Source: Ginglymostoma cirratum (lineage: Eukaryota). From it: a DNA stretch of 64,000 bases. The translations under genes and the position numbers were made by a program. The notes beneath the pieces were generated by a model. It was not told where the DNA came from. It saw only the letters and a program-made list of their open reading frames with translations, and did no database searches. How positions within the stretch are numbered: the first letter of the stretch is position 1; each line of letters opens with the position of its first letter. The stretch covers positions 591,940 to 655,939 of the forward strand of contig JAHRHZ010000055.1 of the NCBI GenBank assembly GCA_024137785.1, given 5' to 3'. Below are positions 10,947 to 61,585 of the stretch, one piece after another.

Positions 10947-11317
10947 TTGTGGTTGGTTGGCTCGCCGAGCTGGTTCATTGTTTTTCCACAGACATTTCAT
11001 TACCCTGCTGGGTAACATCATCAGTGCAGGAAGCGCCGTTGTGTTTTCCCACCTGTTATTTGAACTCTGGGGTCCGTTGAGCTGGATTACCTCACTTCCA
11101 GCTTTCCTTCGCAGTGGAGTGTGTATGGGGTCGAGCTCTATGTGTTTGTTGATGGCTTTCTTCGTGGAGTACCAGGCTTCTAGGAATTCCTGTCCTTGTC
11201 TCTGTTTTGCTTGTCCCAGGATCTGGGAAACGTCTGCAGAAAAATAACGAACCAGCTCAGTGAGCCAACCAACCACAACATCCACAACCTGAACTACAAA
11301 TCTACTCCAAAACCTTA
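10947..11317 (-). mobile_element. Penelope-like element fragment (GIY-YIG C-terminus plus pseudo-LTR, inverted partial pLTR)
   Basis: QILGQAKQRQGQEFLEAWYSTKKAINKHIELDPIHTPLR; inverted copy of gaaa(c/t)gtctg...gagccaaccaaccacaa; 12-bp TSD GAATTGCAGATC at 10935-10946 and 11318-11329. Confidence 0.88.
10986..11030 (-). ncRNA. Minimal type I hammerhead ribozyme
   Basis: cctgca CTGATGA t GTTACCC agca GGGTAAT GAAA tg TC tgtgg: intact core, 7-bp stem II, 5-bp stem I (with G-U pairs). Confidence 0.8.
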
Positions 11318-13999
11318 GAATTGCAGATCATAAGATCAGAATCTCTGGTTTACCAATGGCCATGAATTGTGGCTTAACCTTGATCACTCAACCCAAGAAG
11401 ACAGAAGAAGTTCAATTTAATCTGCGTCCAACATTTACAGAACCTATTCCTATTGTTTGACACATGCACTACTCAAGAAACACATTATTTTGGTATCTAC
11501 ATCAGATAAAGCAGAATTATTCATATATACCTAAAACATATGAAGAGATGTCATTATACACCTCTGGTGGGCAGGTGGGACCTATATCCTTGATCAGAGC
11601 TGGGGACACGACCACTGTGCCACGAGCCTTTGCTAACATGGAAATGTATTATGCGGAGTGAACAAATTCACACATTGCACAGAATCTATGTTCAGGTCAC
11701 TGTTGCTGTGTTATTTATATCAGGCCTAACAGTGGTGGTAGTGTCCCTACCTCTAGGCCAGAAGGTGCCTGCCACGGAGGTATGATTTCTCATTATGAGT
11801 TTAAACAAATGATTTCAAATAATTAGAAAGGAGGATTGGTTGCACCACCTTACACTGAAGCCAAGTGTTGGCTGGTAGCACATGATATGACCTGTGCCCT
11901 TGTCTTGATGATGCTCTGAAGAGGTTTGAATTTTTAATCAATTACCTCAGCTGGTCCCACCCAAACCACTCCCCACCATGTAGGGGAACAAGCCCCTGGC
12001 TTCCCTGCCAACGCCTGCACCAAACAACATCTGACTAGCTGCCAACAAGCAAGGTCCAGGTAACTGCCATGTTTTGTCAAGGGTGCAGGTGGGGAGGAGG
12101 GGGCATGCACTCTGTGAGGATCCCAGTAGAGTTGCCAAACAGCCCTCAAACGGGCAGCTACCTATTGAAATGAACTACTTGCTGCTGCTATCGCCAATGG
12201 TGCCCCACATGGTGCTGAAGGAGGTGACAACATGCTAGCATGATGACCCAATGTCCTGGTGTACAAATTTCCTCCTGGTCCCAGCTTTGAGCCTCAGCCT
12301 TGCGTGATAGGCCAGATTTCATCTGCTATCTCTCTTGCTGCAGGACATTTCTAGAATTTCCTATTTTTATTCTGTTTGGATCCTTTGAACTTTAGCATGA
12401 TCTTAATAGACTTGAAAAAGATCCCTTCTGTTCTGTACGTTTGAATCAAATCCTTTCTTATTGAATTCTGCTACTCTCAAAATCACAGAATTGTTACAGT
12501 ACAGACAGATATCATTCAATGCATTTTGTCTGCACTGACTCTATCAAATCAGAATGCAATCAGTGCCATTCTCCTGCCCGTCCCCATAACCCTGCACATT
12601 GTTCCTTTTCAAATAGTGGCTCACTTCTCCTGAATGCATGAATTGAACCTGCCTTTATCACACTCTCAGGCAGTGCACTCTCGATCCTAACTACTCGCAG
12701 TGTGAATAACACTTTTGCTTCTTTCACTCATTACTTTAATTTTACACTTTAATTTTATATGACATCCTGAATACTGGTCTGGGCCTCAGACAGAAATGGT
12801 TCCATTTAAATATAGCTTGCTTTGGGAAAGAAATGTAGGGAATGAATCAATCGCATGCAAGACGTTGCAATTGTTTTCTTAAGGATCCTTGTTATTTCTA
12901 TATTTGGGAGAATTTGTAAACGTTATTTATTCAGAATCCATTTTACTCTAACATGTACCATATATTGGTCAATTCACAAGCTGGTAGGTTAGTTCTCAGG
13001 CAGCAATTATACCTGCAGGTGATATGGATACTATTAGGCTGACAAAGCATTAGTTTGGACTGTTCGAGGAATTGTTCTCTTCAAGAGTCTCCAAGCGGAG
13101 TATAATGAGCTTCCATCAGCAAAAAAAGGGGAGAGAAAGAAATAAATTAAAGAATAGCTCACATTGCAGTTATTATCTCTATCCACATCCTGTGGCTGAT
13201 GCATCATAAACTGCAGGTATCTTTTACACTTGCTCTTCCGGCTTCATGAGAGAGATGATTAAAAAGAAAGGTCCCAAATGCGCTTTGAAATTACATTTGT
13301 TTCTGTTAGATATAAACTCTAAATAGGTCTCAATATCTCATACCATCCAGCTATTTGCAACAGGAGCAGATTTGCAAAGTGTGAGCATAATTATTTTTTG
13401 TATTTCCAATTAAACTGTCACATAGAAACCTTTTTGATACAAACTTTTCCTTTCACTGGCAGTAGTAGACGTTTTGTACAGTGGGTGATCTCTCATCTTC
13501 TCCTGAAATTTTGGCTTATATTGGAACACGGATGTGACCTCATGGCTTCCCTACAGTATGCCACCAAAGGACTATAACTAATCTGTAATTATTTGACAGT
13601 GAATGACAACAGACTGCTTGAGCATGGAGGTTGCATTGGACCAGAGGTACAGGCACACTCTCTTGTGGTCTGAACAGGCCAAAAAAGAGCAGGAATCTTG
13701 AGCCTTCCTGACTAACCAGAAGATGCTGAGTCTAGATGTTATACTCCACCTATTGGCCTACCTCAAAAGAACTTACTCAATGCTTGCGTAGAACATATAC
13801 ACAGAAGAGCGCAACAGAAGTTAGAAGCAGAGACAGCAATTATGGTAAGAAGTCAAAACTTGAGGATCTTTATCTGAATGCACCCAGCTTGAATCAGTTT
13901 GACTGGGAATAAAGAATAACAAGGGAAAGAAGTCATAGGTGGGAGTTGTCTTTAGGTCTAAAAGATTTGCCTCGGTGTAGGATAAGGTATAAACTGGGA

Positions 14000-15065
14000 A
14001 ATAACAGAGGCATATAACAATTGTTATGATTTTAATCTGCATATTGATTGGACAAACAAGCTGGGCAAGGACTCTACAAAGAGTGCATCAAGGATTGTTT
14101 CTTATAGCAGGGCATTGCACAACCTACTGGGGAACATCAGAGATAGTAGGAACTGCCAAAGCTGGAGAATCTGAGATAATAAGGTGTAGAGCTGGATAAA
14201 CACAGCAGGCCAAGCAGCTTCAGGGAAGCAGGAAGGCTGACATTTCGGGTCTGGACCCTTTTTCAGAAAGAAGGGGACTGTACTGTTTTCAAACCATTTC
14301 AATTTGAGTTTGAGGGAAAACTACTCTGGTCTCAAATCAGTGTTGCCAACTTAAATAACAGTATTTACAGAGGCATGAGAAGAGACTTGTCTAAAGCATG
14401 CTGGGAAAGTAGACTGAATGGCAGATATTTAAGATGATATTTCATCAAGTTCATCAAAAATGTATTCTGTTCAAAAGGAAGGACTCAGTGGAGAGGTTGA
14501 ACTGTCTTGTGGTTTCCGAGGCTATCAAGGAGAGTTTTCATTCCAGGATGAAGTCACACAAAGCAGCAAAGATGATGGTATAAGTTAAAGGATTGGGAAT
14601 TGTTTTAGGAAGCAGCAGCAGTTGACTAAAAAGAAAACAAAGAGAGAGAAAATTAATGATAAAATCAGCAAGAAATACAAAAACAAACAGAGCTTTTACA
14701 TGAGTGTGGGTCACTTGGAGGATGTAACTGCTGAGCTCAACAGCTGAAACAAACAACAGGGAAATTGAAGATCATTCAAACCAATACTTTGCATTGGCCT
14801 TCATGATGGAGGACACTACGAACATCCCAAAGATAACGGATAAACCTGTTGTTAACGGGAGGAGAGATCTTCTAGCGATCTCCATTGTAAGGGACAAAGT
14901 ATTTGACAAACTGACGGGACTAAGGCAGAAAAATTGCCAGGATCTATTGGCCTGCATCCAACCTCTTCAAAGGAAGTAGCTGCAGAGATAGTGGAGGAAT
15001 TAGGCAAAATTTTCCACAACACATTGGATTCCGGGAAGGCTCCAGCAGATTGGAAAAACTCCATT
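14000..15065 (+). mobile_element. Degenerate CR1 ORF2 fragment with Penelope pLTR insert (~14139-14270)
   Basis: PGSIGLHPTSSKEVAAEIVEELGKIFHNTLDSGKAPADWK; pLTR matches 17918-18013. Confidence 0.75.
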
Positions 15066-15459
15066 TTGATTATACCCGACCTTTGGCTGCACCCTTTGAA
15101 TTATTTGCTCCCAACAAAGCTGACCTAGTTTCTACTATTTACTCCTATCATTAACACCTATTTTTTACCCTATCAGTCCAGTACTGCCTTTAGCACTCCC
15201 TGCATCTTTGAAAAATGTTCCCCATATCACCTCTGTTTCTTTTGCCAGTCACCTCTAATGACCTTGGTTACTGACCCCCTCTGCTGCTGCAAACTATTTC
15301 TTCTTAGTTACTTTTGTCAAGACCATTAGTGATTCTGAACACCTTGAACAAATACCCTCTTCAGTTCTTCCATGTAAATTGTACTCGAAATCTGGAACAC
15401 ACTTCATCAAAAAGCAATGGAGGCTGGGTCAACTAAAAGTTCAACAATTAAAAATGTTA

Positions 15460-15630
15460 AATAAAAACCGAGAGAACTGCGGATGCTGTAAATCAGGAAC
15501 AAAAACAGACGATGCTGGAAAAGCTCAGCAGGTCTGGCAGCATCTGTGAAGGAGAAAACAGAGTTAATGTTTCGGGTCCAGTGACCCTTCCTCAGTTCTG
15601 AGGAAGGATCACCGGACCCGAAACATTAAC
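15460..15630. mobile_element. Penelope-derived palindromic insert with two opposed hammerhead cores
   Basis: agttaatgtttcgggtccagtgacccttcctcag / ctgaggaaggatcaccggacccgaaacattaact; 11-bp TSD TAAAAATGTTA at 15449-15459 and 15631-15641. Confidence 0.82.
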
Positions 15631-15925
15631 TAAAAATGTTAGATTGTTGTTATTGAAGGTCAATATGGAAAATGGAACCAATGTCAGGAAATGGAGCTGA
15701 GAAGCAGTTCAGCTTTGATTTAATTGAAAGTGGACCAGGATGATGTGACTAAACAGCTTCCACTACTTCCTGTTTCCTTTTGAGAAGACTGCGGTAGATT
15801 TCGAAAAGATCCATGAGGATCCCGCTAAGCTATTTGCAAGGCAAGTCAAACGATTCCAGGAAATAGCACATTTGTTGGGCAGATTCCTGGGGCATGCCTG
15901 ATTTTGGGTAGTGTTACACATTAAA

Positions 15926-16770
15926 GGGAGGTGATGCCCCAGCGGTATTATTGTTAGACTATTTATCCAGGGAACCTAGCTAGTGTGCTGGGGATCCAGG
16001 TTCAAATCCTGCCATAGCAGATGGTAGAACTGGATTTCAATTTTTAAAAATCTGGAATTAAGAATCTACTGATGCCAATTGTTGGGAAAAAAATTCCCAT
16101 CTGGGAAAAAAAAATCCCATCTGCGTTCACTAATGCCTTTCAGGAAAGGAAATCTGCCACACTTACCCGGTCTAGCCTATATGTGACTCCAGACCCACAG
16201 CAATGTGGTTAACTCTCAGATGCCCTCTGAAGCGCCCTAGTAAGCCATTCAGGTGCATCCATCACTACAAAGTCTCAAAGAAATGAAACCAGACAGACCA
16301 TCTGGCATCGAACTTGGGACTGGAGAAGATAACGGCAGGAATAACCCTGTCAACCTTGTAAATGTCCTCCTTACTAACATGTGGGGGCTAGTGCCAAAAT
16401 TGGGAAAGCTATCTCACAGACTAGTCAAACAACAGAATAATGTAGTCTTGTTCAAGAATCATGCCATACGGGCAATGTCCCAGACACCACCATGACCATC
16501 CCTGGGTATGTCCTGTCCCACCAGGAGGACAGACGCAGCAGAGGTGGCAGCACACTGGGATACAGTCAGGAGGGAATTGCTCTGGGAGTTGTCAACATTG
16601 ACTCTGGATCCCATGAAGCCTCGTGGCTTCAGGTTAAACATGGGCAAGGAAACCTCCTGCTGATTACCACATACTGTCCTCCTTCGGCTGATGAATCAGT
16701 ACCCCTCCGTGCTGAACAACAATTAGATGAAGCACTGAGCATGAACGCTGAGCAAACAGTCCAGACATTG
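15926..16770 (+). mobile_element. 5' end of a LINE with tRNA-like head followed directly by AP-endonuclease
   Basis: A-box-like and B-box (ggttcaaatcc, 15999-16009) head, then VLLTNMWGLVPKLGKLSHRL...IPGYVLSHQEDR.SRGG...LLITTYCPPS. Confidence 0.82.
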
Positions 16771-17917
16771 TGGGGTGAACATGTTCTCTGTCTCTCTCAC
16801 TCACTCACTCTCTTACGCTTTCACATTCTNNNNNNNNNNNNNNNNNNNNNNNNNNNNNNNNNNNNNNNNNNNNNNNNNNNNNNNNNNNNNNNNNNNNNNN
16901 NNNNNNNNNNNNNNNNNNNNNNNNNNNNNNNNNNNNNNNNNNNNNNNNNNNNNNNNNNNNNNNNNNNNNNNNNNNNNNNNNNNNNNNNNNNNNNNNNNNN
17001 NNNNNNNNNNNNNNNNNNNNNNNNNNNNNNNNNNNNNNNNNNNNNNNNNNNNNNNNNNNNNNNNNNNNNNNNNNNNNNNNNNNNNNNNNNNNNNNNNNNN
17101 NNNNNNNNNNNNNNNNNNNNNNNNNNNNNNNNNNNNNNNNNNNNNNNNNNNNNNNNNNNNNNNNNNNNNNNNNNNNNNNNNNNNNNNNNNNNNNNNNNNN
17201 NNNNNNNNNNNNNNNNNNNNNNNNNNNNNNNNNNNNNNNNNNNNNNNNNTACAAACGCACATGCACACGTACGCGCACACACATCTTAGTCTCAAAAGCT
17301 TACTCATTATGGACAGTAAGGAAGGGAACTGGGATTTGACCCTGTCTGAAATATGAAAATACTGGCATGGACCAGTTGTATCAAGTGATCTGTTTCTGTG
17401 CTGTATATATTATGTCATTCTATATAATCGTATGATTCTTTTGTTCTAAATTGGATTTGATCAATAAATGTCAATGACTCATCACTTAATAACAACCTTA
17501 TGGTGTTTGCTTTCTTTCTTCAAAAGTCTTGGTCGACCATGACTGGATTCAGACTGGATCATATTATCTTAACCATCGCCATGAGCCTGACTGTCTCCTC
17601 TAAAAGGCAAATAAAGGCAACACGTTACATTGTGGCAGGCTCAGTAACAAGAGAACTGGAGATTTTCTTTTACACACAATAACATACCTTCTGTTCTTTG
17701 AGAAGGACATAAAAAGACACAGAGAAGGATCCCATGGCATTGTTCAAAGGAGAGCAGAGAGGTTCTTTGCAGTGTCCTAGCCACCAGCTCTCACTCAGCC
17801 TACATCTGTCTGTCTGGCAGTCATTCCGTCCTTTCTCTGGACCTTGTTTCCAGGGGTTGGGCAATGGACATCCATTCGATTGGACCATATTTATAGACAA
17901 ACAACAGCTGTAGTTTG

Positions 17918-18012
17918 AGGTAACAAGGTGTAGAGCTGGATGAACACAGCAGGCCAAGCAGCATCAGAGGAGCAGGAAAGCTGACGTTTCGGGCCTAGAC
18001 CCTTCTTCAGAA
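17918..18012 (-). mobile_element. Solo Penelope pLTR with hammerhead core (17980-18013)
   Basis: Minus strand tttCTGAAGAagggtctaggcccGAAAcgTCagc; TSD AGCT(G/A)TAGTTTG at 17906-17917 and 18013-18024. Confidence 0.85.
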
Positions 18013-19649
18013 AGCTATAGTTTGTCTGGCTTTTCTGCAGGGTTGCTGATTCACCCATTCTCACTAGCTGCCTTTAGGTATATCGGAAGGATTTATAGGC
18101 TGACAATCAGCCTGCTCAGCCACATGCTGAGCACATTTTCCAGACCCAATAGGTCCTGGTATAAGGCCTGAAACATGGAGCTTCTGGTCAACAGATAGGG
18201 ATGCTATCACAGAACCACAAGATCTCCTCAACCAACATCAACAAAGCAGATTATCTGCTTCAGAAACAGAAATTGTTGGGGAAATGCAGTAGGCCTAGCA
18301 GCATCTGTGGAGAGAAAGCAGAGTTAACATTTCAGGTCAGTAAACATTCTGTTTTTTGTTTCAGATTCCCAGCATCTGCACTTCTTTGGTTTGTTTCCGT
18401 TTGTCTGGTTATCTGTTCCATTGCTCTTTCTTGGAGCTGAGCGTGCATGAATTAGATGATGCATTTCTTACAAGATGGCAATGACTAAACTTTCAAAAGA
18501 CCATAAGAAATAGGAACAGGAGTAGGCCATTAGGCCCCTTGAGCCTGCTTTGCCATTCAATAGAATCATGGCTGACCTGACGCTCCTCATGTCCACTTTT
18601 GTGCCCTTTGTCTGGTACTGTATTTACAATAAAACACTTCGGAACATCTCAAAGTCCTGAAGAAGCTCTACAGAAAATGCAAGTTCCTTCTGTGTTTTTC
18701 ATACTTAGGGTGTGATTGATTTCCTACAGCCTGATGCTTTAGTGTAACCTCGACTTTATTTAGAATGAAGCCATTTTGTATTTAAATTCTGCGACAGCTT
18801 GAAGAGCTTAACACATTATATTTCCACTGGCTGAACGCCAAGAGATAAACAAAAAGATCAGAGCTTGTAATGGCGAAGAAAAGTGAGTGAGATGGAAAAC
18901 ATTAGCTTTAAATGCCCCAGCAATTATAACTCTAATGCAATCAGAACTTTCTTGTAAACAAAAGGGAAATAAAGAAAATGTACAAGGAGGTGGAATGGAG
19001 ACGTTAATAAGGATAACGAAGGTAGAAGTTAATAAGATTCTAGAGGTTAATGGAGGGGTGAATGTTCTGTCAACTTTGCTGATCCCAAGCTCAAAGAGAC
19101 TGTAAATTGAAATCACCTATCAGCAGAGATTAAATTTAAGGCCAGGATTTATTGCTGTGTGTGCACCTAATACTGGGGCATGTGACTTTTGGGACAATTA
19201 TCTTCCACGCCAGTGAGAAAGCTGGGCAGATCCAGCACCAATTAGCTGGTCATGTGCAGCTTAGAGAACTACCTGTCCAATCAGGAGCCTGGCCACTACA
19301 GTCCCACCTCCCCTGAGGCCTCCAGCCAATCAGAGGGCAGCCTCATGGAGCTGGAAGCCCAGGCTCTGCAACCATGAAGAGTTGCCTTGGTGAGAGGCTA
19401 AGTGTTTTGCTGCAATGGGAGAGTGGAGGGACAGATGTGTCAGGGCATTTGGAGACATGAGCAATAGGGTGGCTGTCTAAATCCCTGTTTTGATTTTCTC
19501 CAGACTGGGGCAAATGGATACTCTTCCCATCCTTTAGGCAGCCCTCCCTGTTTGTCTATTAGGAATTTACCACGTTCCTCATGTGCTGGGAAGCCAGTTA
19601 AATTGGGCCGAGGCAGTCTGAGGCTCTTAATTGGCTGTTATATTTTGTT

Positions 19650-22309: not shown

Positions 22310-24520
22310 CTAATCCAAATTTCTCATGCTAGGCTCATTGCCTTGAATGTTATGACACTCCAAGTGCTCACCAAGTATGTTTTTAAAAAGGTGCGAGCTT
22401 TCCTGCTCAACTACCCTCCCAAGCAGTACATTCCAGACTCCCATCACCCACTGGGTGAAAAAAATCTAAACATCCTGCCTTCCATGTTAAAATTGTGCCC
22501 CTGTTATTGACCCTTCAACTGAGGGGAATATCTGCTTCCTATCCACCCTGTCCATGCCCCTCATAATCTTACACACCTCAATCAGGTGCCCCTCAGCCTT
22601 CTCTGCTCTGAAGAAAACAACCCAACAGCCTCTCTTTAACGCTGAAACGCTCCATTGCAGGCTACATCCTGGTGAAGAGATAGTAGGAACTGCAGATGCT
22701 GGAGAATCTGAGATAACAAGGTGTGGAGCTGGATGAACACAGCAGGCCAAGCAGCATCAGAGGAGCAGGAAAGCTGACATTTCTGAATCATCAGCCTTCC
22801 CGCTCCTCTGATGCTGCTAGGCCTGCTGTGTTCATCCAGCTCTACACCTTGTTATCTAACATCCTGGTGAATCTCCTTTGCACCCCCTCCAGGCGTAAAC
22901 ACATCCCTCTTATAATGTGGTGACCAGATCTGCACACGGTCCTCCAGCTGTGGCATAACCAAAGTTCTGTATAGCTGCAACATAATCTTCCTGCTCTTAT
23001 AACCAAAGACCCAACTGGTGAAGGCAAGTGTCCCATATGCCTTCTTAACTACCCTATTATCCTGTCCTGCCACCTTCAGGATCTGTGGATAAGAACCCCA
23101 AGATCCCTCTGAGCTTTCTAGTGTCCTACCATTCATTGAGTGCTCCCTTGTCTTGTTCCTTCTTCCAAAGTACATCACCTCACATTTATCAGGGTTAAAT
23201 TCCATCTGCCACAGATCTGTGCATCTGACCAATCTGTCTATACCCTCCTGTAACCTGATATATTCCTCCTCCCTGCTGACCACCTGGCCAATGTTTGTCA
23301 TCCACAAATGTACCTACTATCCCCAATGTTCTCCTCTACATCATTTATGAATATCACAAACAGTACAGGACCCTGCACTGATCCCTGTGGTACACTACTG
23401 CGTCTCGGGCTCCAATCATTCAGCCTTCTACCACTACCCTCTGTCTGCTGTCTCACAGCTAATTTTGAATACGACTTGCCAAGTTACCCTTGATCCCACG
23501 AGCTTTTGCCTTCTTTATCAGTTTCCTATTTGGGACCTTGTCAAAGGCTTTGCTGAAATCCATAAAAACTACATCAATTGCCCTACTCTCATCCAAACTA
23601 TAACTCATCTCCTTAAAATATTTCACAACGTTTGTTAGGCATGACCTCCCTCTAACCAAGCCATGCTGACTATCCCTGACCAAACCTTGCCTACCTCAAT
23701 GGAGATTAGTTTTCTTCTTTATTATTTTCTCCAATAGTTTCCCTACCACTGATCTTAGACTCACTGATCTATAGTTCCCTGGTCTATCTCTACCACCCTT
23801 CTGTTAAAGTGGAACCACATTGTCTGCCCTCCAGTACTTTGGCACATCCCCTGTAAAGATGAAAGTGAATTGAAAAAGTGGGTCAGTGCCACTGTAACTT
23901 TCTCCCTTGTCTCTCCCACAGCATCCTGGGATACAACTCATCAGGACCTGGGGATTTGTCCAGTTTTAAATCTGTTGAAACCTCCAATATCTTCTCATTT
24001 CTAATAACAATCTGATGAAGAACTTCACAGTGTGTCTTCTTGAATTCTGTACTTGCATGGTCCTTCTCCCAAATAAAGACAGATGTGAAATACTCATTTT
24101 ACGCTGTAACAATGTCCTCCAGCTTCATGCATGGATTTCCCCCTTTGTCCCTAATAGGGTCTACCCTTTCCCTGGTTATTCTCTTCCTTTTTACATACTT
24201 GCAGAATATTTTAGGATTCTCCCTAACTTTGCCCGGCAATGTGTTCTCACACCGTCTCTTTGCTCTCCTTATTGCTTTTTTGAATTACCCACTGCGTGTT
24301 CCATACTCCTCTAGGGCCTCTGTTGTTTCGCTCCCTGAATATGCTGAGACATCCTTGGTTCTCTGGGCTTGTAGTTCCTACATTTCATCCTAAAGGGAAC
24401 ATGTTGGGCCTGTTATCCCCCAGTACCTTTTTGAACACTTCCCACTGTTCAACTGTAGATTTACCCTTGAGTAGCTGTTCCCAGTCTACTATGGCCAGAT
24501 CCTGCCTTAGTTTAAATGAT
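22310..24520 (-). mobile_element. CR1 LINE ORF2 (RT), degenerate
   Basis: SQHGLVRGRSCLTN..IDVVFMDFSKAFDKVP; WQMEFNPDKCEVMYFG; LYRTLVMPQLE..VQIWSPHYKRD. Confidence 0.93.
22677..22858. mobile_element. Penelope inverted-pLTR insert inside CR1
   Basis: Inverted arms gataacaaggtgtggagctggatgaacacagcaggcc; 13-bp TSD ACATCCTGGTGAA at 22664-22676 and 22859-22871. Confidence 0.88.
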
Positions 24521-26099
24521 ACAGTGTCAAATTTTGTATATCGTTTCTTTAACCTCATTATTGACAACCGTACCTTTGGTTTCCCAAGGCCTAAGCTCTG
24601 GAATTCCCTTCTAAACCCCTTCCGCCTCTCTGCTGTGCCTGACGATCCCTCAAGTCTATTTTTTCCGTGACTATATCTGAGTTTACTATGTCAATTTTTG
24701 TTTGAGGTTCCTGTGGAGGGCATTGGGATGATTTACTACAAAATTAAGATGTTACATAAATGCAATTTTCTTTTTTTTAAAAAAAAAACCTTTGTTCAGG
24801 TACATTAATAAAAGCATGCTGGTCCCTTTTGAGTCAGCTTTCTCTTTCAATTCAGCCAAGGCTATGGATCATCCAACTCCAAGAGCTGTCAGGTCTGCAA
24901 AAAGGTTTATCTCTGTGTTTTAGAGCTGCAGAACATCACAGCCAGCGAGCAAGCGAAAACCAAAAAGTTGCAGAAGTGGACAGTAATTTGCTCAGATCGT
25001 TATTGTTAGACGAGAGTTCAGTGGTATCATTCTTTAGTGTCATTAGTGAGAAGAAATTTTAAAATATCAACAGGCTGGGTGTAGTGGCCAAACCCTCCCT
25101 GTTGCTCATACATGGTGAGTGTATTATTCTATTAGAACTTTAAGGCTGCATTTTTTTTAAGATATGCCTCACATTATTTATCGTCAGGTATATCTAATTG
25201 TATTTCTCTTTTAATGAGAAAGGTGATGTAGAGATTCAGTGATAATTGCAGCTATCTCAAGTAAAAGATCAATGCTGGGAGTGAATGATCAATTACTACA
25301 AACGCTCAGACAAACTTTTTCTTTTGGTTCTAATGAGATTGTAATGAAATTAGAATTTTATTCCTGCTTGGCAGGCATATTGGACAAAAGGTTCTTTTAA
25401 GATATATTTCAAATGAAGTCAATCACATTACCGTGGGTCTGGAGTCACACATGTAGACCAGACCACATAAGGATGGCAGATTTCCTTCTCTTAGTGAACC
25501 AGATGTGTTTTTACAACAATCGACAATGGTTGTGTGTTCAACATTCGACTAGCATTTTATTCCAGATTTTTACTGAATTCAAATATCACCATCAACTGCA
25601 TTTCCTCAGAACGTTCATCCTGTCAAATGATTCCAAAATTTAATTGGAGCAAATATGGTAAGGCAAGGGACATGCAGTTTCTGAACATTGTGTTACTCAC
25701 ACATACAAAGTATATGATCTCAATGGATCGTGATCCTGCTCAACACTAACATTTAAATAACACTACATTTTTAATACATTTGAAGGATGCCATAAAATGG
25801 ACTAAAATAATTGTTATATCCAATTACAACAACTATTTCTACGCCACCCTCCTTTTTCTTTGCATTTCTTACTTATGTTTGATCATTGGTTTTAACCACA
25901 AAGAAAATAAACTATTCTACTATGCATACATATTCTTGTATGTATTTTGATTCTGGCACGGTGATTTTGAAATGAAGACAGTTTATTTCTTCCTCCTGTT
26001 CCTTCCTTCTTGCTGACTTGTCTTTCTGGGACGGCTGGGCGGTCTTGATTCTGGGATCACTTTAGTTGTCACTTCCACTTCCCTGTGCTGTTGGAAACA

Positions 26100-27165: not shown

Positions 27166-28361
27166 AGTTAAACGAATTGCAAGCTGCACAGATCTGCTAT
27201 GTGGGTTCTCACTAATTTGCCCAGGGTCACTTTCTCCACCCTTACTATTCCCTATAACATTTTCTACTAATTCTTAAAAGACTTTCAGCTTCCGAGGTGA
27301 AACTTCGACATTTGATCAGATTCTCACTTCCCATCCCCGCCAATTATTACCCTTCTTCCCTCCCTCCCCAAATCAATTGCGCATCCTTGGAGTTTAGGTA
27401 CAAATCCCAATCATCTGGATGTTTCTGCAGAGTCTAGTCAACATGTTATCATGTTTCAAATCCTTTGCGGCAGCTGAGTGTAGACATTTCTTCTTACCCC
27501 ACCTTCTCCTTGCCTGGCATTTGGTCAATGCTTGGAAAAACCATATTCAATCTTCTAATGCAAGCAGAGATAGAGAGGGTATCCAGAAGTGAGCTCTCAG
27601 GGCTAACAGAGAAGATTATTACAGAAAACAGCAAGACACCAATATTAACGATTTTTCTAAAAAGCATAACATTGAGAGGGCAACAGGCAAATTTATTTTT
27701 ACAAACAACTCTACGATGGGAACAATTAACCTCCATTCTGATGAAGAATGAATGGAAAAGCGATAAAATGCTGGGTAACATTTGTTTACGTTCAATATAA
27801 ACTGTTACATTGAACCATTAAACTTAGGTCAGCCAAACAGATTATGAGGTAATTCAGTAATTGCCTGTTTATATTTATTTTTTGTTTAAATGCTTGCATG
27901 TATGAGACCATGTCACAGTGTCAATTATTGTGGCTTTGAAATGATCAGAACCTGTTTCAGTCACTTAAGGATTTAGGCCAACGAGTAGCAGAGTCTAAAC
28001 AGAAATGAGGAGGAATTACTTCTCTGAAAGGATTGTGAATCTGTGGAATTCTTTACCTCACGATGCATTGGGTGCCAGGAACCAGAGTAAATTTAAGGAG
28101 GAGATAGACAAGATTTTAATTCGTAACAGATTAAACAGGTATTGAAAGCAGGCAGCAAAGTGGAATTGTAACTGAGATGAGATCAACCGTGATCGTATTA
28201 GATATTGAAGCAGGTTTAAGGGGCTGAATGGCCTACTCTTACTCATAGATCAAGGTTCAATTATTTTCATGACTTTTTACGGTCTGTACTTGCTGATGCT
28301 GAACAGATGCAGTCCACAGACTCTGGATCTCCTTCCTTAAATCCCAACTCTTTCCAAATTC

Positions 28362-28592
28362 TGAAATTGCTGAAAAAGATCAGCTGGTTTGGCAGCATTT
28401 GTAGATAGAAATCAAAGTTAATGTTTCGAGTCCAATGACCCTTTCTCAAAATCTGGAGTTCTGAAGAAGGGTTACCGAACCCGAAAGGTTAGCTCTGATT
28501 TCTCTCCACAGATATTGCCAGACCTGCTGAGCTTTATCCAGTGACTTCTGATTTTGTTTCTGATATACAGCATCTGCAGTTCTTTTGGTTTC
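28362..28592. mobile_element. Penelope-derived palindromic insert; hammerhead at 28456-28495 (+)
   Basis: Inverted arms of ~85 bp; gagtt CTGAAGA a gggtt accg aaccc GAAA gg TT agctc. Confidence 0.8.
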
Positions 28593-29759: not shown

Positions 29760-29905
29760 TGATGTGGCGATGCCAGAGATGGACTGGGGTGGACAAAGTC
29801 AGGTGAAGTCCACTTTACCTGACAAAGGAGCAGCGCTCCGAAAGCTCGTGATTTCAAATCAACCGGTTTTACTATAACCTGGCGTCAAGTGACTTCTGAT
29901 TTTGA
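29760..29905 (+). mobile_element. Third Penelope pLTR family fragment with hammerhead-like core (29815-29851)
   Basis: ttac CTGACAA a GGAGC agc GCTCC GAAA gc TC gtga; G8 mutated in this copy. Confidence 0.62.
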
Positions 29906-31074: not shown

Positions 31075-31812
31075 GGATCCGTTAGCTCAATTGGCTGGAT
31101 GGCTGGTTTGCAATGGATCAATACCAATAGCATAGGTTCAATTCCCATACCCACTGAGGTTACCAATGATGACTATTCCTCTCAACTTTGCCCCTCACCT
31201 GGAGCAGATACTTATGCCCCTCAGGTCAAACACATCACCAGTCTGAGATAAAAGGTACTACAGATGCTGGAGAATCCGAGATAACAAGCATGGGGCTGGG
31301 TGAACACAGCAGGTCAAGCAGCATCATAGGAGCAGGAAAACTTGCACAAGCTTCAAAATCTCCCCTCCCCCAACCGCATCCCAAAACCAGCCCAGCTCAT
31401 CTCCACCTCCCTAACCTGTTTTTCCTCTCACCTCAAGCCACACCCCCATCTCCTATCTACGAACATCATCCCGCCCCCTTGACGTGTCCATCCTCCCTGG
31501 ACTGACCTATCTCCTCCCTACCCCACTACCTACACTCACCTTTACTGGCTCCATCCCCGCCTCTTCGACTTGTCTGCCTCCTCTCCTCTATGCATCCTCT
31601 ATCCACCTCCCCCTCTCTCCCTATTTATTTCAGAACCCTCTTCCCCTCCCCCATTTCTGATGAAGGGTTTAGGCCCGAAACGTCAAGTTTTCCGGCTCCT
31701 ATGATGCTGCTTGACCTGCTGTGTTCATCCAGCCCCATGCTTGTTATATCACCAGTCTGCTCCTGTTATGAGTGAGCAGCCCTATGGTCTGGTAAGTCTA
31801 TGACATGTTTAC
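31075..31812 (+). mobile_element. tRNA-headed SINE (family also at 38495-38690 minus and 59545-59735 plus), split by a Penelope insert
   Basis: tagctcaattgg...ggttcaattccc boxes; shared body cctcaggtcaaac..accagtc and tail gcagccctatggtctgg. Confidence 0.7.
31246..31747 (+). mobile_element. Penelope 3' fragment with inverted pLTR; hammerhead at 31654-31687
   Basis: C/T-rich spacer, then CTGATGAagggtttaggcccGAAAcgTC; 12-bp TSD ATCACCAGTCTG at 31234-31245 and 31748-31759. Confidence 0.88.
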
Positions 31813-40084: not shown

Positions 40085-40370
40085 TGTGGAGCTGGAGGAA
40101 CACAGCAGGCCAGGCAGCAACAGAGGAGCAGGAAAGCCGACGGTTCAGGTCAGGACCCTTCTTCAGAAATGGGGGAGGGGAAAGGGGGCTCTGAAATAAA
40201 TAGGGAGAGGGGTAGGGCTGGGGAAGGTATCTCTCTATTTATTTCAGAGCCCCCTTCCCCCTCCCCCATTTCTGAAAAAGGGTCCCAACCCGAAACGTCA
40301 GCTTTCCTACTCCTGCACATATCCACACTGTGTTATCTCAGACTCCAGCATCGGCAGTTCATACTATCTC
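40085..40370. mobile_element. Penelope inverted-pLTR insert
   Basis: Inverted arms cagaaatgggggaggggaagggggctctgaaataaatag; 13-bp TSD TTTCCTGCATCTG at 40072-40084 and 40371-40383. Confidence 0.88.
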
Positions 40371-40389
40371 TTTCCTGCATCTGGAGAAG

Positions 40390-46860: not shown

Positions 46861-49800
46861 ATATAGTGCCTTTCACAAGTTCAAAGAGATTCTATTTTAT
46901 CACTTACCAAGCATCCGGGCGGTGATTTTGAACAGGCAAATATAGATTATTAAAACAGTTATTTCCATCAATATAATATGGAGCTAAACGTGGTTAAATT
47001 AAAACATCCAAAAAAGGTTCATCCTCACAGCAGGGAGAAAGTACCGTAAAATGGAGAAGAGAATCCATTTCTTTACTGCTGATATTTTAACAGAAAAGAC
47101 ATGGAAGGCCTGTACAATAAAGGCTGGAATATCAGAACAGCAAAGATAGGCAGCAAAACTGTAATATAACGAGACAAAGGATCACCCCATTACTGCCCAA
47201 TTTATTCAAAAATTTGAAGATCATAAAACATCAGTAAAAATTTGAACTCTATGTAAAATTCGACAATGAAACAAAACGGCATTAGAAAGAGAAAAAAGCT
47301 TCACTCTGTGAGAACTGTGACTGTGACAGTCTTCATCGTGAACCAGTGCTGGCATGATGGGCCAACTGGCCTCTTTCTGCACCAGAACAGCTCAGTGTTT
47401 CTGTGAACAGACCACAGATACGAAGCCATCTTGACTCTAGGGAGGTTCTCCTTGTGTGGGTCGTAGGTTTACGAGCTGTGAGCTTTGTCTGTGTAGGGGT
47501 CAGAATAACAAGTTAATTGCTGGTTACGTTACCATTTCTAACTTTTCAAATCCATCTTTAATCAGAGATAATGAAGGAACTGTTCGGATGCTGAAGACCA
47601 ACTTTGTGACTCGGTTCCCTCTGGAAATGCCAGGTTTTCAGGTGAATCACAACAGCACTGCTAGCCCTGGAATGATTCTAATTCATGGCGGGAGTTCTGA
47701 AATAGGCACTTCAGCTAGAATTTTTAAACGTCAAGGACGATTTTAAAATAGAGTCAGAGTTTTACAGCATGGACAGCTGCCCTTCAGTCCATCGTGTCTG
47801 GACTGGTCAAATGTAGGAATCTCATCCCAGAGCCATGGCTGTTTGTCCAGGCCTAAATGTACTGGGAATGCTTCCAAGGAATAATGAACTTCTTTTTAAA
47901 ATTTACATAACCAGCTAATGGACGTTGTGAGATAGCGATTAGAATACATGAGAAGTTTGAGAGACTCTTCTCGCAAATTCAGTCAACATTTGATAAAGTA
48001 ACTGGTTAGAGGATTTCAGACATGTTTCCATGAGTTGAGTCCTTCTAGTTCAGAGGTAGGGATAATGCCACTGCACCACAAGGCCTTCTTAGGTAACACA
48101 GCAAGATGTAGACAAGAGCAGTGACAGCATGCCATAGAATGAAGTTTATGCAACCAACTGCAGTGACGTTGCAGCATGCAAACCTGTTGTGAATGGTGAT
48201 AAATGAAGCAACACTGGAGGAACCAAAGCAGTATAACACAGGCACAGCGAAGGACAAGAGCAGATTAAAAAGTCCTGCCTGTTTTTTGTATTGTCATCTG
48301 CACTAATGGGCTCTCGTAAATCAGAGCGGTGCATGTCTCAACCTGTCTGTACATCTCCCTCTGTGAATAATTTGAAATAAATGTCAAGCCACCTTTACAC
48401 AGCGTCTCGGCTCCTGGAGGATTAATTAGGCGATCAGACTCAAATAATCAGTCACTGTTATCATCCCATCTAATAGCTCCCTGGAATTCTAAAAGAATAA
48501 CATGCTAAATAACAAGTTGGAAGGTGGGGAGGCTAAAAGTAGAGGAGGGGGATGTGGCACTAGTGGCTTGGGTCATCAACCAATTGTTTGGATAGACATT
48601 CTGGCGGATTCCTTACGTGACTTCGTACCTGCCTCAGTTTGTCCTCAAATCTTCGTGAGGGGTTGTCTCAAAGACCACCCACATGACTTAACCCTTTTCC
48701 CACCACCGAGAAACAGACAGACAGTTTGTTGACCGATTAGATGCTTCTTGACTGTCTCGATTAAAACACCGTATCTTCCCCAATTTCCTGTCATTTTTTT
48801 AACTAACAAATTAAAGTGTTCAGAGAAGACAAAAGAAAGAAAGCAGCCCTATGGTTTGTCCACTGGGTTGCTTGTGGCTGTGACCAGGATTAATCATTCA
48901 TTCTCGGAGGGCTGTCTGGGAAAGGATGAAACTTGTCAAGGCAGATGATGCTCCCTCAGAAATTCAGGATGTGGAGGATCTGGCGATCCCTATCAATGGG
49001 AAATGGAGCGCGGGGAGAGTGCTGAGGGGAGCAGTCCTTGTTTCTCTACTCAGGCCTCCACCTAAAATGGCACATTGATCGTGGAGCCAATCATTCTAGA
49101 GGTGGCTTTATCAAACATGCTGGTCAAACATGATCTGCCCGCTTGAAGCAATACTTCGCTGCCTTGGTCTGTAACCTACTCGCAGACTGAAACCAAACGG
49201 TTTAGTCAGGACATGGCAGCAAAAAGCCGCCTCAAACTGACTATTAAAGAGGTGTTTATATAGTGGGAAGACAGCCTTGGTGTCAAAACAACCAACAAGT
49301 GTAGGCCACTCAGCCCTCCAAGCCTGCTCCAGCATTCAATAAGATCGCAGCTCATCTGATTTTAACCACAACTCTATATTCCTGCATATTCCTGATAATC
49401 TTTCAACCCCTCAGTAATCAATAATCTATCAATTTCTACCTTGAAAATTGTTAAATGATTCTGCATCCAAACTCCTTTTGTCTTTATATGGTACTTTCCG
49501 TGACCACTGAATGTCTCAAACCTACTTTCAAGCCACTGAACTACCTTTTTCATGTCGTGGCGAAATGCTGTAGATGCTGGAGATCTGAAATATGAATGAA
49601 GTGCTGGAGAAACTCAGCAGGTCTGGCAGCATCTTTGGAGAGAGAAACAGAGTTAGTATTTCAAGTCTGAAGTACTGGGCTCAAAACCTTAACTGTTTCT
49701 CTCTCTGCTGAGGCCTGCTGAGTTTCTCCAGCACTTTCTGTTTGTATCTTTGTTGTGTAGTCACTGTTATGATGTAGGGTACACGGTAGCCCATGTGCAT

Positions 49801-50539: not shown

Positions 50540-50674
50540 GTTCTGAGGAAGGGTCACCGGACCCGAAACGTTAATTCTTTTTTCCTTCACAGATGCTGCC
50601 AGACCTGCTGAGCTTTTCCAGCAACTTCTGTTTTTGTTCCTGATCTACAACATCTGCAGTTCTTTCAGTTTTTA
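50540..50674 (+). mobile_element. Solo Penelope pLTR with intact hammerhead (50540-50575)
   Basis: gtt CTGAGGA a GGGTC accg GACCC GAAA cg TT aat. Confidence 0.82.
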
Positions 50675-52254
50675 CGTTGTTCTGAATGTTTGCTTCCAGC
50701 ACAAAGCTTCACTGGGAGCACATAATAGATTAAAATTGTGACGAGCACACCCAAAATGTTTGGAAAAATGCTGCATAAGTATTATGTACTGGAAAATCAG
50801 GAGATAACACTGTACTGATTCACAGGAGGAACTACATTTTGTTTTAGATCCCCTGAAACTGCATTAGACTTTGAACAAGAAAGATTTCGGAGAAACTTAA
50901 TTGTCATACAAGCAGAGGATCTTAATCACAGGAGGCCATTTAACCCACCTTATGTGTTCCACTGCTTTGGAGTAACAGCAGTTCCACAACTCTGCATTCT
51001 CCTGAAACCCTGTTAGTTCCTCATTCTCTCGTACTTGCCCAACTCTCTTTTAACATGACTTTCAAAAGCAGGTGAATGAAATTTTCAGGCTATTTTAAAG
51101 TCGTACACAATAATTCACAGGTTCCGTGAAAAAAGGAGGGATGACATTTGTTCATCAAAAGTGGTAAAAATATTCAAATCCCGTGAAGTCAAAATAGAAT
51201 GCCACACTCAGCCAGTACAAACCCAACCGTAAGCAAATAGAATCAGGGGCCATTAAGCTGGAGTCACTGAGGAAATTCTAGAGAGCCCCATTAATGAAAT
51301 ATGGGTTTGGTTTTTGCATTCTCTGCATATAAAAAAGGGCCTGATTACAGAATTGGGTTTTCCAAATGTGATTGTGTTGGGAGAGGAGCAAAATTTCTGG
51401 TGGTTGGAGGTCTGTGATTGACGGTTACAGCAGTGGGAGCCATTTGAGGGACTGAGTTAAGCATCACACTATTTTATGTGTAAGTATCACTGTCATTGGC
51501 ACAACTACAAAATCAGAGACCCCAGCAAGAGCACTGCAAACACTGGGGTATCCAGTATTGGAAAAAAGTTAATCAGAAGACAGAACAGGCCATTCTGCCC
51601 CTCACAGTGGCTCTGCCATTCAATAACGTCATGGCTGATCCAGTCGTGATTCAACTCTGTTTTCCTGCCTGGCTCTCTATAACTCTTGACTCTTTCACCA
51701 GTCAAAAACCTGTCAAATTCAGCCTTATTTATATTCAATGACCCAACCTTTACTGCTTTTGGTAAAATGAATTGCAAAGACCAAGTCTCATGAATTGAAG
51801 AAATTCATTTTCATCCAAAGGATTCACTCTAATCTCTGACTTTCTTATTGTGTGAGCCTGCCTGACATGTGTGTGTGTGTAAAGCCCAATGCATTTAGTA
51901 GTGCCTATGGTCCCATATAGAGGTTGGAGAGCTTTGAAGACAACCAAATGTGTTTTTCTTTTTAAATCTAAAGACCTCTATAACATACTGAGGATAATGG
52001 ACTTATATAGAAGGCTAGAAAAACTGGGTACATTCTCAAGCAAACAGGGAAGGTGAAGGGAAGTTTTAATTGCAGTATTTAAAATGAGTAGGGAGTTGCA
52101 GCACAGTACATGGAGACAACCTGGTTAACCTGACAGAAGGGTCTGCAAACATAAAGCATGCAAATTTCAAGGTGATTACAAAGAAAGCCAGAGGAGTGGT
52201 GATGAAATTTTTTTAATATAATTACACAAAGCAAAACTTCTTTCTTTCGCCTTG

Positions 52255-52677: not shown

Positions 52678-52719
52678 GTGCTTGACAATACATATTGAAC
52701 ACTTCTTTATATAAAAGAT

Positions 52720-54818: not shown

Positions 54819-55160
54819 GAGATAACAAGGTGTGGGGCTGGATGAACGCAGCAGGCCAAGCAGCATCATAGGAGCAGGAAAGCTTGACGTTTCGGGCCTA
54901 GACCCTTCATCAGAAATGGGGGAGGGGAAGAGGGTTCTGAAATAAATAGGGAGAGAGGGGGAGGCGGATAGAGGATGGATAGAGGAGAGGATAGGTGGAG
55001 AGGAGGCAGACAAGTCGAAGAGGCGGGGATGGAGCCAGTAAAGGTGAGTGTAGGTGGGGGCGGTAGGGAGGAGATAGGTCAGTCCAGGGAGGACGGACAG
55101 GTCAAGGAGGCAGGATGAGGTTAGTAGATAGGAGATGGGGGTGTGGCTTGAGGTGGGAGG
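54819..55160 (-). mobile_element. Penelope pLTR plus spacer; hammerhead at 54883-54916
   Basis: Reverse complement of 31420-31747; CTGATGAagggtctaggcccGAAAcgTC. Confidence 0.88.
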
Positions 55161-55197
55161 ACTACTGAGTGAAATTATCTACAGTGTCATTAGATTA

Positions 55198-58290: not shown

Positions 58291-59416
58291 TTGTATGTGG
58301 AACAATCCCTCTTCCAGACCTACACTGGCCCTAAACCCCACCTCTTCCTCCGTTACATTGATGACTGCATCGGCACCGCCTCGTGCTCCCACGAGGAGCT
58401 CGAACAGTTCATCCAATTCACCAACACTTTCCACCCCAACCTGAAGTTCACCTGGACCATCTCCAACACTTCTCTCTCCTTCCTGGACCTCTCTGTCTCC
58501 ATCTCGGGCAACCACCTAGAAACAGATGTCCATTTCAAGCCCACTGACTCCCACAGCTACCTGGAATACACCTCCTCCCACCCACCTTCCTGCAAAAATG
58601 CCATCCCCTATTCCCAATTCCTTCGCCTCCGCCGCATCTGCTCCCAGGATGAGACATTCCAATCCCGCACATCTCAAATGTCCTCATTCTTCAAGGACCG
58701 CAACTTCCCCCCCACAGTGGTCGAGAACGCCCTCGACCGTGTCTCCCGCATTTCCCGGAACACATCCCTCACGCCCCGTCCCCGCAACAATAACCAAAAA
58801 AGAATCCCCCTCGTCCTCACATACCACCCCACCAACCTCCGGATCCAACGCATCATCCTCCGACACTTCCGCCATCTNNNNNNNNNNNNNNNNNNNNNNN
58901 NNNNNNNNNNNNNNNNNNNNNNNNNNNNNNNNNNNNNNNNNNNNNNNNNNNNNNNNNNNNNNNNNNNNNNNNNNNNNNNNNNNNNNNNNNNNNNNNNNNN
59001 NNNNNNNNNNNNNNNNNNNNNNNNNNNNNNNNNNNNNNNNNNNNNNNNNNNNNNNNNNNNNNNNNNNNNNNNNNNNNNNNNNNNNNNNNNNNNNNNNNNN
59101 NNNNNNNNNNNNNNNNNNNNNNNNNNNNNNNNNNNNNNNNNNNNNNNNNNNNNNNNNNNNNNNNNNNNNNNNNNNNNNNNNNNNNNNNNNNNNNNNNNNN
59201 NNNNNNNNNNNNNNNNNNNNNNNNNNNNNNNNNNNNNNNNNNNNNNNNNNNNNNNNNNNNNNNNNNNNNNNNNNNNNCTCTCTCCCTATTTATTTCAGAA
59301 CCCTCTTCCCCTCCCCCATTTCTGATGAAGGGTTTAGGCCCGAAACGTCGAGTTTTCCTGCTCCTATGATGCTGCTTGACCTGCTGTGTTCATCCAGCCC
59401 CATGCTTGTTATCTCG
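58291..59416 (+). mobile_element. Young 5'-truncated Penelope-like element: RT ORF, gap, pLTR with hammerhead (59319-59352)
   Basis: Uninterrupted ORF FLRYIDDCIG...HPNLKFT..LSFLDL..TDVHFKPTDSHSYLEYTSSHP..IPYSQFLRLRRICS; pLTR beyond the gap. Confidence 0.93.
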
Positions 59417-60346
59417 AGTATTTGCTAGGAAGTTTGTTTATTATTTTGTTGGATTGCTGACAGGGTCAGCATTTGTTGTCTACCCCTAACTGCCTTTAAA
59501 CTAAGTGGGTTGTTACAGGTCATTTCAGAGTTAACCATGGTCAGTATACCTCAGTTGGCTGAACGATTAGTTGGCGAAGCAGTGTGACGCTAACAGTGTA
59601 GGTTCAAATCCCATCACCGGCTAAGTTGCCATGAAGGACTTTCCTTTTCAATATTTCACCTTGCCTGAGGAATGGATAAATTACCACCAGTCATCTATCG
59701 CTAATGAAAAAGCAGTCCGCTGAGACTATGACAACACAACATTGCTGTGGGTTTGGAGTCAAATGTAGACCGGACCAGGTAAGAATGGAAGATTTTCCTC
59801 CCTAAAGGGCATTAGTGAACCAAATCATAATTTTAATGGTTGCCATTACTAAGACAAGCATTAGTAATTATATTTAAATTCATGGCCTCAGAGGACTGGC
59901 CTGGCCCTCTGGATTATTGGAATCTAGTGATTTTACCATGACACTGCTGTCTCTCTCGGGGAAATAGATACGACAGAGACATAAATTGGGGAATAAATAC
60001 AGCCATCAACCATGTCATCTCCATGCAGCTGAAAACCGAAATGAATCAGGAAAGGCTATATGGGAGGTGTGATGTTGCCAAAGAAGCGAAAATGAAAAAA
60101 AACAACTTATTTTGCAAGTCACAGTCCTTTAGAAATTTTCCACCAAGCTACCACACACTATTCCAGAACACACAAAACAATCATTTACAATCCTACTGCA
60201 AACAAAATGAAATGAGAATTAAAACGACGCTGTTCAGAGTAAAGTTGCTCCCTGAATTAACAGAGAATGGAAGACATTCTGACTGTATGGAGGTTGCTGA
60301 AATCAATGCAGGCAACAGTAAATCTTTACTTTGGCCTCATTTCCTT

Positions 60347-60373: not shown

Positions 60374-60845
60374 TGGTAATATTCTATCCTTCCCCATTGC
60401 TGGCAATGTGCACTTTGGCATGAAGAATGAACTCTGGAGTTCCCTTTAAGATACTCTTCAAAACGTTTCTACATGAGCAAGTTTTTGCTCAGTGATACTA
60501 ATATCTTCTTATACAGCAGTGTCAAATATTCCTTGGTAGTTACTTGTTGGAGTACCTTAGCCTCTGTTATTGTGTAAAAGGTACTGAGGAAATCAAAGTT
60601 ACCAAGTACAGGGTTGTCCATGGTTGAAGGCTTTGATTGTCGTTTAAGCACAGTCGTGGGGAAGAGCCATTTGAATGGAGGAGTGTTGACGATGGTGCCT
60701 GTACTACAGTGCAACAAAACAGAATTAGAGCCTTCCCGAGCCTGGGGAAAATGAGAAAACTTAGCGAGTGACTCAAAGTCACTGCCTTTTCTTGCTGGGC
60801 TTTATTGAATGGGATTTCACACAATACAGGTAACAATGTACTTAC

Positions 60846-60943
60846 TGCAGCTCCAGGTCATTCTGCTCTTGAGGGATGAACTTGTAGAGAGCCACGTACG
60901 TGTGCATCTGTAGCATATCCTTGCGCATCGAGGGCTTCCTAAC
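60846..60943 (-). CDS. STAC2: STAC-family (STAC2-like) coding exon, start of SH3-1
   Basis: 98 nt, cctgcag|GTT...CTG CA|gtaagt; translates VRKPSMRKDMLQMHTYVALYKFIPQEQNDLEL(Q), with the YVALYKF.PQE..DL motif of STAC SH3-1; phase 0 to phase 2. Confidence 0.93.
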
Positions 60944-61486
60944 CTGCAGGACGGGTAGGAATTCAGAAAGTGAGCTTTAAGCCAGATGAGGGAAGATCAA
61001 AACGCTTAGCTCTCTGTTACAGCAAAGAATCAAGAGATGAAAAGTTAGATACCAATCTTGTGCAGGGAAGGATACCGTGCTCAACATTTAGGTCAAATGA
61101 CTTCAATGGAGCAGCTTCTTTTCTAGTTCATTCTCAATCCTGTGCAATACCACTAACAATCTCAAATAAAATTTACCAATGCTGACATCCATTTCCAAAT
61201 CAACGGGTGCATCAAAAAATATATGAAACAACTCTGATGAACACAGCAGGTCACATGTACTCACATCACTTAGGACATGTGTATTTAAAATTTTGTTGCT
61301 TATTTACATACCATTGTTAAAAGAAGATTTGATAGAGATGTTCAAAATCATGAAGGGTCAAGACAGATTAGATAGAGACACAAACTGTTTCCATTGTTAT
61401 AAAAGGTCGATAAACGGGGTCACCGACTTAAGGTGCTAATTGGCAAAGGAAGCACATGAGGAATATTTTTTTTTTAAAAAAATCAT

Positions 61487-61585
61487 TTTTCTGAAGGAGG
61501 GTCCAGGCCCAAAACGTCAGCTTTCCTGCTCCTCTGATGCTGCTTGGCCTGCTGTGTTCATCCAGCTCTACACCTTGTTATCTCG
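61487..61585 (+). mobile_element. Solo Penelope pLTR in a CR1 remnant (61310-61780)
   Basis: Reverse complement of 17918-18013; hammerhead core degenerate (cccAAAAc). Confidence 0.8.

Follow-up and report, generated by a model that had tools for sequence, protein, structure and literature searches.

Hammerhead copies in the window

The window analyzed here is a stretch of 64,000 nucleotides (nt) of Ginglymostoma cirratum DNA (assembly GCA_024137785.1, contig JAHRHZ010000055.1, positions 591,940 to 655,939), and it contains dispersed hammerhead ribozyme motifs that belong to Penelope-like elements (PLEs). A sequence-only reading of this DNA had named ten coordinates, and a core was found at or a few bases from every one of them. 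Nine are strict cores (CTGANGA-N-stem-GAAA with a paired stem II); at the tenth, named as 29815, the core position is present (29819) but the box is broken (CTGACAA). Nine strict cores compare with 0.5 on average, and at most 3, in 30 second-order Markov controls. A search allowing one mismatch returned 32 rows in the window against a control mean of 12.6 distinct starts (maximum 20), which is not above chance, and the decayed copies at 14243, 29819, 40143, 40272 and 61491 therefore rest on family homology. With a full descriptor (core, stem II, the stem III pair and a stem I of at least 3 bp), five of the 14 window copies scored were accepted (10995, 31657, 50543, 54890 and 59322); a fifteenth row (28440) was left out because its register was wrong. 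Copies were sorted into families A, B, C and D by self-BLAST and alignments and are arranged in the window as follows.

10944..11281, minus strand: truncated family C (predicted Poseidon-type) insertion with a GIY-YIG C-terminus (10985-11225), strict core 10995-11024 and a short inverted arm (11227-11281)
14136..14269, minus strand: family A solo stub (hammerhead and tail), core 14243-14266 broken (CTGAAAA)
15462..15631, no single strand: family B head-to-head pair, strict cores 15570-15595 (minus) and 15598-15623 (plus), stem III palindrome decayed in both
17917..18013, minus strand: family A solo stub with a strict core at 17987-18010 and just 2 bp of stem I
18261..18338, minus strand: family B tail without core
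22676..22857, no single strand: family A head-to-head tails without a whole core
28355..28585, no single strand: family B head-to-head pair, strict core 28461-28486 (plus)
29811..29904, plus strand: family D stub, broken core 29819-29843 with AGCT palindrome, inverted tail remnant immediately upstream
31242..31750, no single strand: family A insertion of two arms with a flanking duplication of about 12 bp; the long arm (31342-31750, plus) has 3' untranslated region (UTR), TATA-like box and intact strict core 31657-31680, and the inverted arm (31242-31344, minus) begins at the predicted cut or one base before
34831-34947 and 49568-49743: family B tails without core
40087..40371, no single strand: family A head-to-head pair, decayed cores 40143-40166 (minus) and 40272-40295 (plus), source of spurious Rfam microRNA matches
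50540..50675, plus strand: family B solo stub beginning 3 nt before intact strict core 50543-50568
54819..55161, minus strand: family A 3' UTR, intact strict core 54890-54913 and tail
58298..59416, plus strand: young family A copy with reverse transcriptase (RT), N stretch, 3' UTR, intact strict core 59322-59345 and tail
61488..61585, plus strand: family A solo stub, core at 61491 doubly broken

No head-to-tail tandem hammerhead array is present in the window; the rest of the genome was not searched for arrays. A scan with Rfam covariance models gave no hammerhead among 27 matches up to E = 1, and its microRNA matches were spurious, produced by the head-to-head hairpins of the hammerhead repeats.

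Positions are numbered from C3 of CUGANGA as +1, the base before it being 0. The catalytic boxes CUGANGA, GAAA and UH stand in type I order, in line with the minimal type I architecture first proposed, and the extra nucleotide noted after A9 was found in all four families, as was a G at 10.1 (demanded by the filter used). There is no helix III. The pair 15.2-16.2 is CG in 80 of 101 family A, 21 of 33 B and 12 of 37 C copies and GC in 37 of 38 D copies; the remaining pairs are mostly CA or TG, as CpG decay would produce, and decay within families is found mostly at CpG. The palindrome ACGT or AGCT given for stem III is no longer intact in several copies (CA at 15570 and 15598, GG at 28461, a TG wobble at 10995). 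Helix II is 4-5 bp long in A, B and D, and helix I consists of U-A, U-A and U-G in A, U-A, U-A and G-C in B, A-U, C-G and G-C in C, and C-G, A-U and C-G in D. Helices I and II pair in every family though the letters differ between families. Covariation of the stems is accordingly seen across families; changes within families are mostly one-sided. The stem II described as shared by the B copies is not identical in all of them, being mismatched at 15598 and carrying a compensatory change at 28461. Likewise, the four contexts correspond to four families but are not unrelated, since A, B and D are related to one another (predicted Neptune-type).

The motifs described by Cervera 2014 (PMC4209133) share the type I topology, the missing helix III, the extra nucleotide 9/10.1, G10.1, the palindromic 15.2-16.2 and the short helix I; they also occur as several families per genome, mostly as single copies with some opposite-strand pairs. 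They differ in helix II, which here has just 4-5 bp in the three families named. No chondrichthyan name occurs in the part of the main text covered or in its searchable supplements, and figures could hold some. Since every structural feature was already reported there, the motifs are, by sequence, of the kind already described: minimal type I hammerheads in the pseudo-long terminal repeats (pLTRs) of four Penelope-like families. That they are no ribozymes, and instead a conserved promoter or protein-binding sequence resembling one, is extremely unlikely. Such a view could draw on the stem I of family A, which is just 2-3 bp long and overlaps the inferred initiator, on the lack of an Rfam match and on an activity that is only predicted here. 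Against it, stem I has a different sequence in each of the four families and still pairs across the cut site, and the homologous motif of the anole Poseidon element cleaves with added protein, with rescue at C3/G8 (Frangieh 2024, PMC11167929).

Carrier elements

The hammerheads are located in PLE pLTRs, as had been assigned, at several loci for A, B and C and at one for D. The elements have the order hammerhead, tail, open reading frame (ORF; RT, Cys linker and GIY-YIG), 3' UTR, hammerhead and tail. Family A has RVT_1 and GIY-YIG Pfam matches with a C-x4-C-x2-C linker between RT and GIY-YIG, and its locus L274 carries a 1037-amino acid ORF starting at +167. RT upstream of a family A hammerhead is seen in the window itself (58298-59416), where 58298-58877 covers the catalytic and thumb region at 98% identity to L274. 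This is a young family, with identical scores for many of its RT copies and about 99% similarity between long ones. Linker and GIY-YIG were also found upstream in broken copies of family B (L027, L030) and family D (L213). In family C, GIY-YIG lies directly upstream, also in the window, no Cys linker is present in L018 or L228, and the RVT_1 match is under the Pfam cut-off (28.0 versus 29.6 bits); GIY-YIG gave a Pfam match in none of three fragments and was recognised by eye. A Pfam search of 16 window ORFs and a PDB sequence search with the RT fragment gave no match.

The Cys linker has been tied to Neptune (Craig 2021, PMC8557442). Judged from domain order and linker, A, B and D appear to be Neptune-type and C Penelope/Poseidon-type endonuclease-containing (EN+) PLEs. 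Neptune and Penelope/Poseidon EN+ elements as described (PMC8557442, PMC3846280) agree with those found here in RT with a C-terminal GIY-YIG, the Cys linker of Neptune, pLTRs, an inverted arm, an optional tail of 30-40 bp and solo pLTRs; a search of the supplement of PMC8557442 returned no shark names. Short upstream ORFs of family A start at +4, where the AUG falls within the catalytic box of the core, and at +45, +48 and +81; those of greater length end at +164, 2 nt ahead of the main AUG at +167 (L255). In the Anolis carolinensis Poseidon element (PAc, PMC11167929), by contrast, the ORF begins in stem II.

Ends of the copies and proposed copying from a capped RNA end

The 3' ends of family A copies lie at about +93 and about +127, a 34-nt tail apart. 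Both end points (about +87..+93 and +121..+127) close with the same 7-nt motif (e.g. window 31245-31281), a candidate RT priming signal. In PAc, too, the hammerhead is followed by a tail with two fixed ends, corresponding to two RT starts. At the other side, copies of A, B and D start mostly 0-7 nt ahead of CUGANGA. Starts at -7..+1 were found for 18 of 66 A arms and 36 of 69 B arms in the unbiased set and for 13 of 20 B and 24 of 53 D among core-anchored loci, and the 292 nt upstream of this interval hold 16 (A), 7 (B) and 14 (D) starts. Flanking DNA other than inverted arms is unique, 0 of 30 flanks being alike for A and 2 of 39 for B.

Long family A copies carry a TATA-like box at -34 in 42 of 45 cases; such a box is found at -32 in 2 of 4 B copies and at -35..-39 in 7 of 10 D copies. 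Transcription typically starts about 30 nt past a TATA box, at an initiator consensus. In addition, a G stands directly ahead of the start in 15 of 21 A (p = 2e-5), 7 of 10 B (p = 0.008) and 9 of 13 D cases (p = 0.002), about 0.27 being expected. An extra G is the cap signature at L1 5' junctions (PMC11702581). A putative TATA box and initiator have been noted in the pLTR of a rotifer PLE; here the start is backed by junction statistics and the extra G.

Further evidence came from 20 family A loci chosen for N-terminal ORF DNA. Nine are chimeras in which the 5' part of an element is broken within the ORF and followed by a stub in the same direction that starts at about -4/-3. The ORF side of these joints is variable (about 757-2162) and the hammerhead side fixed; runs of at least five A are present at the joint in 4 of 9, and a single target duplication of 12-17 nt encloses the chimera in all 8 tested (this search had no control). 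A fixed end joined to a variable, A-tailed one is, we infer, the pattern expected of run-off followed by template jumping. Of the 15 best joints in RNA reads, 9 have one end at -6..+2. In L256 and L273 the 3' UTR precedes the ORF, making these two loci partial tandems, and three ORF-bearing copies (L255, L257, L263) start at -3. A set of "three full-length copies starting at -4" was rejected, as two are 5'-complete, 3'-incomplete chimeras and one is a partial tandem.

Taken together, we consider it probable that the Neptune-type hammerhead is the capped 5' end of the element RNA and that RT copies this short end alone, giving rise to high copy numbers. RNA polymerase II would start at about -4/-3 in A, -3 in B and -6 in D, about 30 nt past the TATA-like box in the upstream 3' UTR, so that only partial tandems would carry the promoter. 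Binding and priming by the RT-endonuclease would take place within the tail, which has been demonstrated in vitro for the anole Poseidon element. When priming occurs at the 3' tail, ordinary 5'-truncated copies would result; when it occurs at the 5' tail, RT would read through the uncut ribozyme as far as the cap, which it would often copy as an extra G. The resulting complementary DNA (cDNA) of 95-130 nt would be inserted alone or joined head-to-head to a second cDNA, or would alternatively switch to an A-tailed element RNA at its 3' end. The promoter-less stubs would then decay, mostly at CpG. Uncut RNA is also the template in PAc, where head-to-head products are consistent with extension of both DNA strands; no transcription start was mapped, and no run-off stubs or template-jump chimeras are reported, in the sections of PMC11167929 covered. 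A stronger version, in which RT primes in the 5' tail, copies ribozyme and cap and jumps to the 3' end of an element RNA, is more tentative: in vertebrate Neptune elements the pLTR may be rebuilt by a retrovirus-like strong-stop transfer, with several hundred thousand stubs as failed jumps and rare cleavage as a self-decapping switch. In family A, a cut would cost the RNA its cap along with about 32 nt, and with them the first upstream AUG.

Several results weigh against copying from a capped end. Family D starts at -7..+1 in only 2 of 12 arms of the unbiased set, and its protein link is one locus (L213). In family C, arms do not accumulate at the edge of the ribozyme (2 of 58 start at -9..+1). 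TATA counts inside a family are shared by descent. The registers of the G test were picked after viewing the data and one row is repeated; about 8 of the 15 family A Gs could derive from the adjoining arm or target, leaving about 7. Among short arms, only 4 of 31 in A, 3 of 16 in B and 0 of 14 in D have exact flanking duplications of at least 10 nt, compared with 2 of 930, 0 of 240 and 0 of 182 in controls. The chimera share is not a genome rate, since the 20 loci were selected for the N-terminal ORF. RNA reads from an unstranded poly(A) library showed no transcription start and no accumulation of molecule ends. ViennaRNA cofolding returned no hammerhead dimer for three of three copies, which is not decisive for such short stems. 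Finally, Arkhipova 2013 (PMC3846280) accounts for head-to-head junctions in another way, by self-priming on antisense RNA.

This proposal bears on a second explanation of the fixed start, which involves no RNA end: having set out from the 3' tail, RT would stall or prime itself at the edge of the ribozyme. Of the short arms, about half lie next to an inverted arm (16 of 30 in A, 17 of 39 in B, 21 of 27 in D), as a fold-back would have it. Structure should, however, halt RT on entry (about +24..+35) and not after exit, the three ORF-bearing copies start at -3 as well, and the extra G and the TATA spacing are left unexplained; we regard a structural stop as rather unlikely.

Fixed ends, very high copy number and some flanking duplications would also fit self-propagating non-autonomous elements with an internal promoter of their own, resembling short interspersed nuclear elements (SINEs) or retrozymes. 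Internal promoters are known in Drosophila Penelope (PMC2377424), and animal retrozymes descend from pLTRs (bioRxiv 10.64898/2026.07.22.740005). These non-LTR retrozymes are non-coding and pLTR-derived with a type I hammerhead, like the stubs, but form tandem arrays, whereas the copies here are dispersed singles or head-to-head pairs, with no array in the window. In addition, window stubs closely match the pLTR of a protein-coding element (98-99%, young copies), they end at the same tail points as long copies, and the TATA-like box is outside the stub. An independent element is thus unlikely.

The remaining explanation, the proposal of Cervera 2014, is that ribozyme cleavage, with or without circularisation, determines where templates end and is the driver of amplification. 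All four families retain the catalytic boxes and stems that covary, and 966 A1 tails begin exactly at the predicted cut (+28/+29), compared with 323 at +31 and 237 at +27. The excess is still about 2.5-6-fold after a rough correction for A-rich microhomology, but of 12 loci starting at the cut, one resulted from an internal deletion and three or more from folding back at the palindrome that directly follows it; microhomology and fold-back account for part of the excess. The uncut core is present in most copies, just 6 of 66 A arms start at +27..+36, and a circle would leave no break at -4. Cervera 2014 found no monomer and low dimer activity, dimer cleavage being a proposal. Frangieh 2024 reported that catalytic mutants leave PAc insertion in vitro unaffected, the motif being dispensable. 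Amplification by cleavage is therefore very unlikely; self-cleavage itself is predicted to be rare and dependent on protein or on dimers.

Poly(A) RNA (the unstranded library named above) contains 49,683 reads on a family A end. Tail depth is about 11,000 per direction; upstream of the core it is about 1,200-1,500. No read in this set ends at the predicted cut site. Since 78% of the end reads continue into unrelated sequence and no end pile is present, the copies are mainly passengers in host transcripts.

The rule of TATA to start does not extend to family C, which has a TATA-like box at -47 and no pile-up 30 nt on. A splice-acceptor origin of the fixed family A start fails because there is no AG at that site, and the clustering of starts at +33/+34 is in part artefactual, caused by a 1-nt indel that distinguishes A subfamilies from one another. 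In family C, a minor group of arm starts lies at -53..-45 (L219-L242).

Genome-wide load and meaning for the elements

The very large ribozyme load suggested for this genome was borne out: in 4.36 Gb the strict generic pattern has 140,807 matches compared with 474 in the control. Exact family patterns occur 32,469 (A), 6,699 (B) and 1,951 (C) times and 182 or 1,015 times for D, depending on the pattern, each with 0 in the reversed control. In 100 sampled stretches of 10 kb, 45 of them wholly N, 515,636 bases were readable and held 29 strict cores (1 per 17.8 kb) and 96 core-spanning copies (A 49, B 37, C 5, D 5; 1 per 5.4 kb). A density of one core per roughly 5 kb thus holds for recognisable cores and not for strict ones. 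As 29 strict cores per fetched Mb match 32 per Mb genome-wide, the count of 140,807 probably misses unreadable DNA, and extrapolation points to about 245,000 strict and about 800,000 recognisable cores. Most copies are decayed stubs without promoter. Cervera 2014 gave about 4,000 motifs for coelacanth and about 9,000 for Xenopus tropicalis, counts that are not like for like with ours since the descriptors differ.

Additional hammerhead-bearing variants exist outside the four families, among them other stem II sequences with the AGCT palindrome and a C-related family (L065 and L134 among the loci). At L272 a family A insertion apparently lies inside a family B tail, and A and B copies adjoin at other loci too. 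The window also contains another abundant dispersed repeat, probably a SINE or the tail of a long interspersed nuclear element (LINE), at 15926-16231, 25417-25615, 33420-33763, 36459-36663, 41005-41316, 44301-44538, 45087-45480, 59736-59825 and 62263-62601. Old LINE-like fragments, about 66% alike, lie at 7982-9271, 23534-24006 and 26110-27164; loose cores at 8044 and 23899 stem from such fragments, have no stem II and are false.

PLE expansion has been described in whale-shark introns (10.1101/443036), and the retrozyme survey (bioRxiv 10.64898/2026.07.22.740005) includes one chondrichthyan. A literature search that left subscription journals and Repbase outside returned no title or abstract dealing with PLE hammerheads of sharks or with PLE cap run-off. 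How pLTRs are built and what the hammerhead does in PLEs are called open by PMC8557442 and PMC11167929. What is likely new here is the combination of the fixed starts seen for A, B and D with the extra G and the chimeras, which leads to a specific model of PLE replication. Family A, whose near-identical copies number in the tens of thousands and which has a complete 1037-amino acid ORF, provides exact testable positions for it: the start at -4/-3, priming at about +93/+127, the cut at +28/+29 and the jump junctions. The strict count exceeds published figures for other vertebrates more than tenfold (with a different descriptor), most of these copies being inert stubs within host transcripts. 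Neptune-type motifs are likely so numerous because the motif is the capped end of the element RNA and is likely copied on its own.

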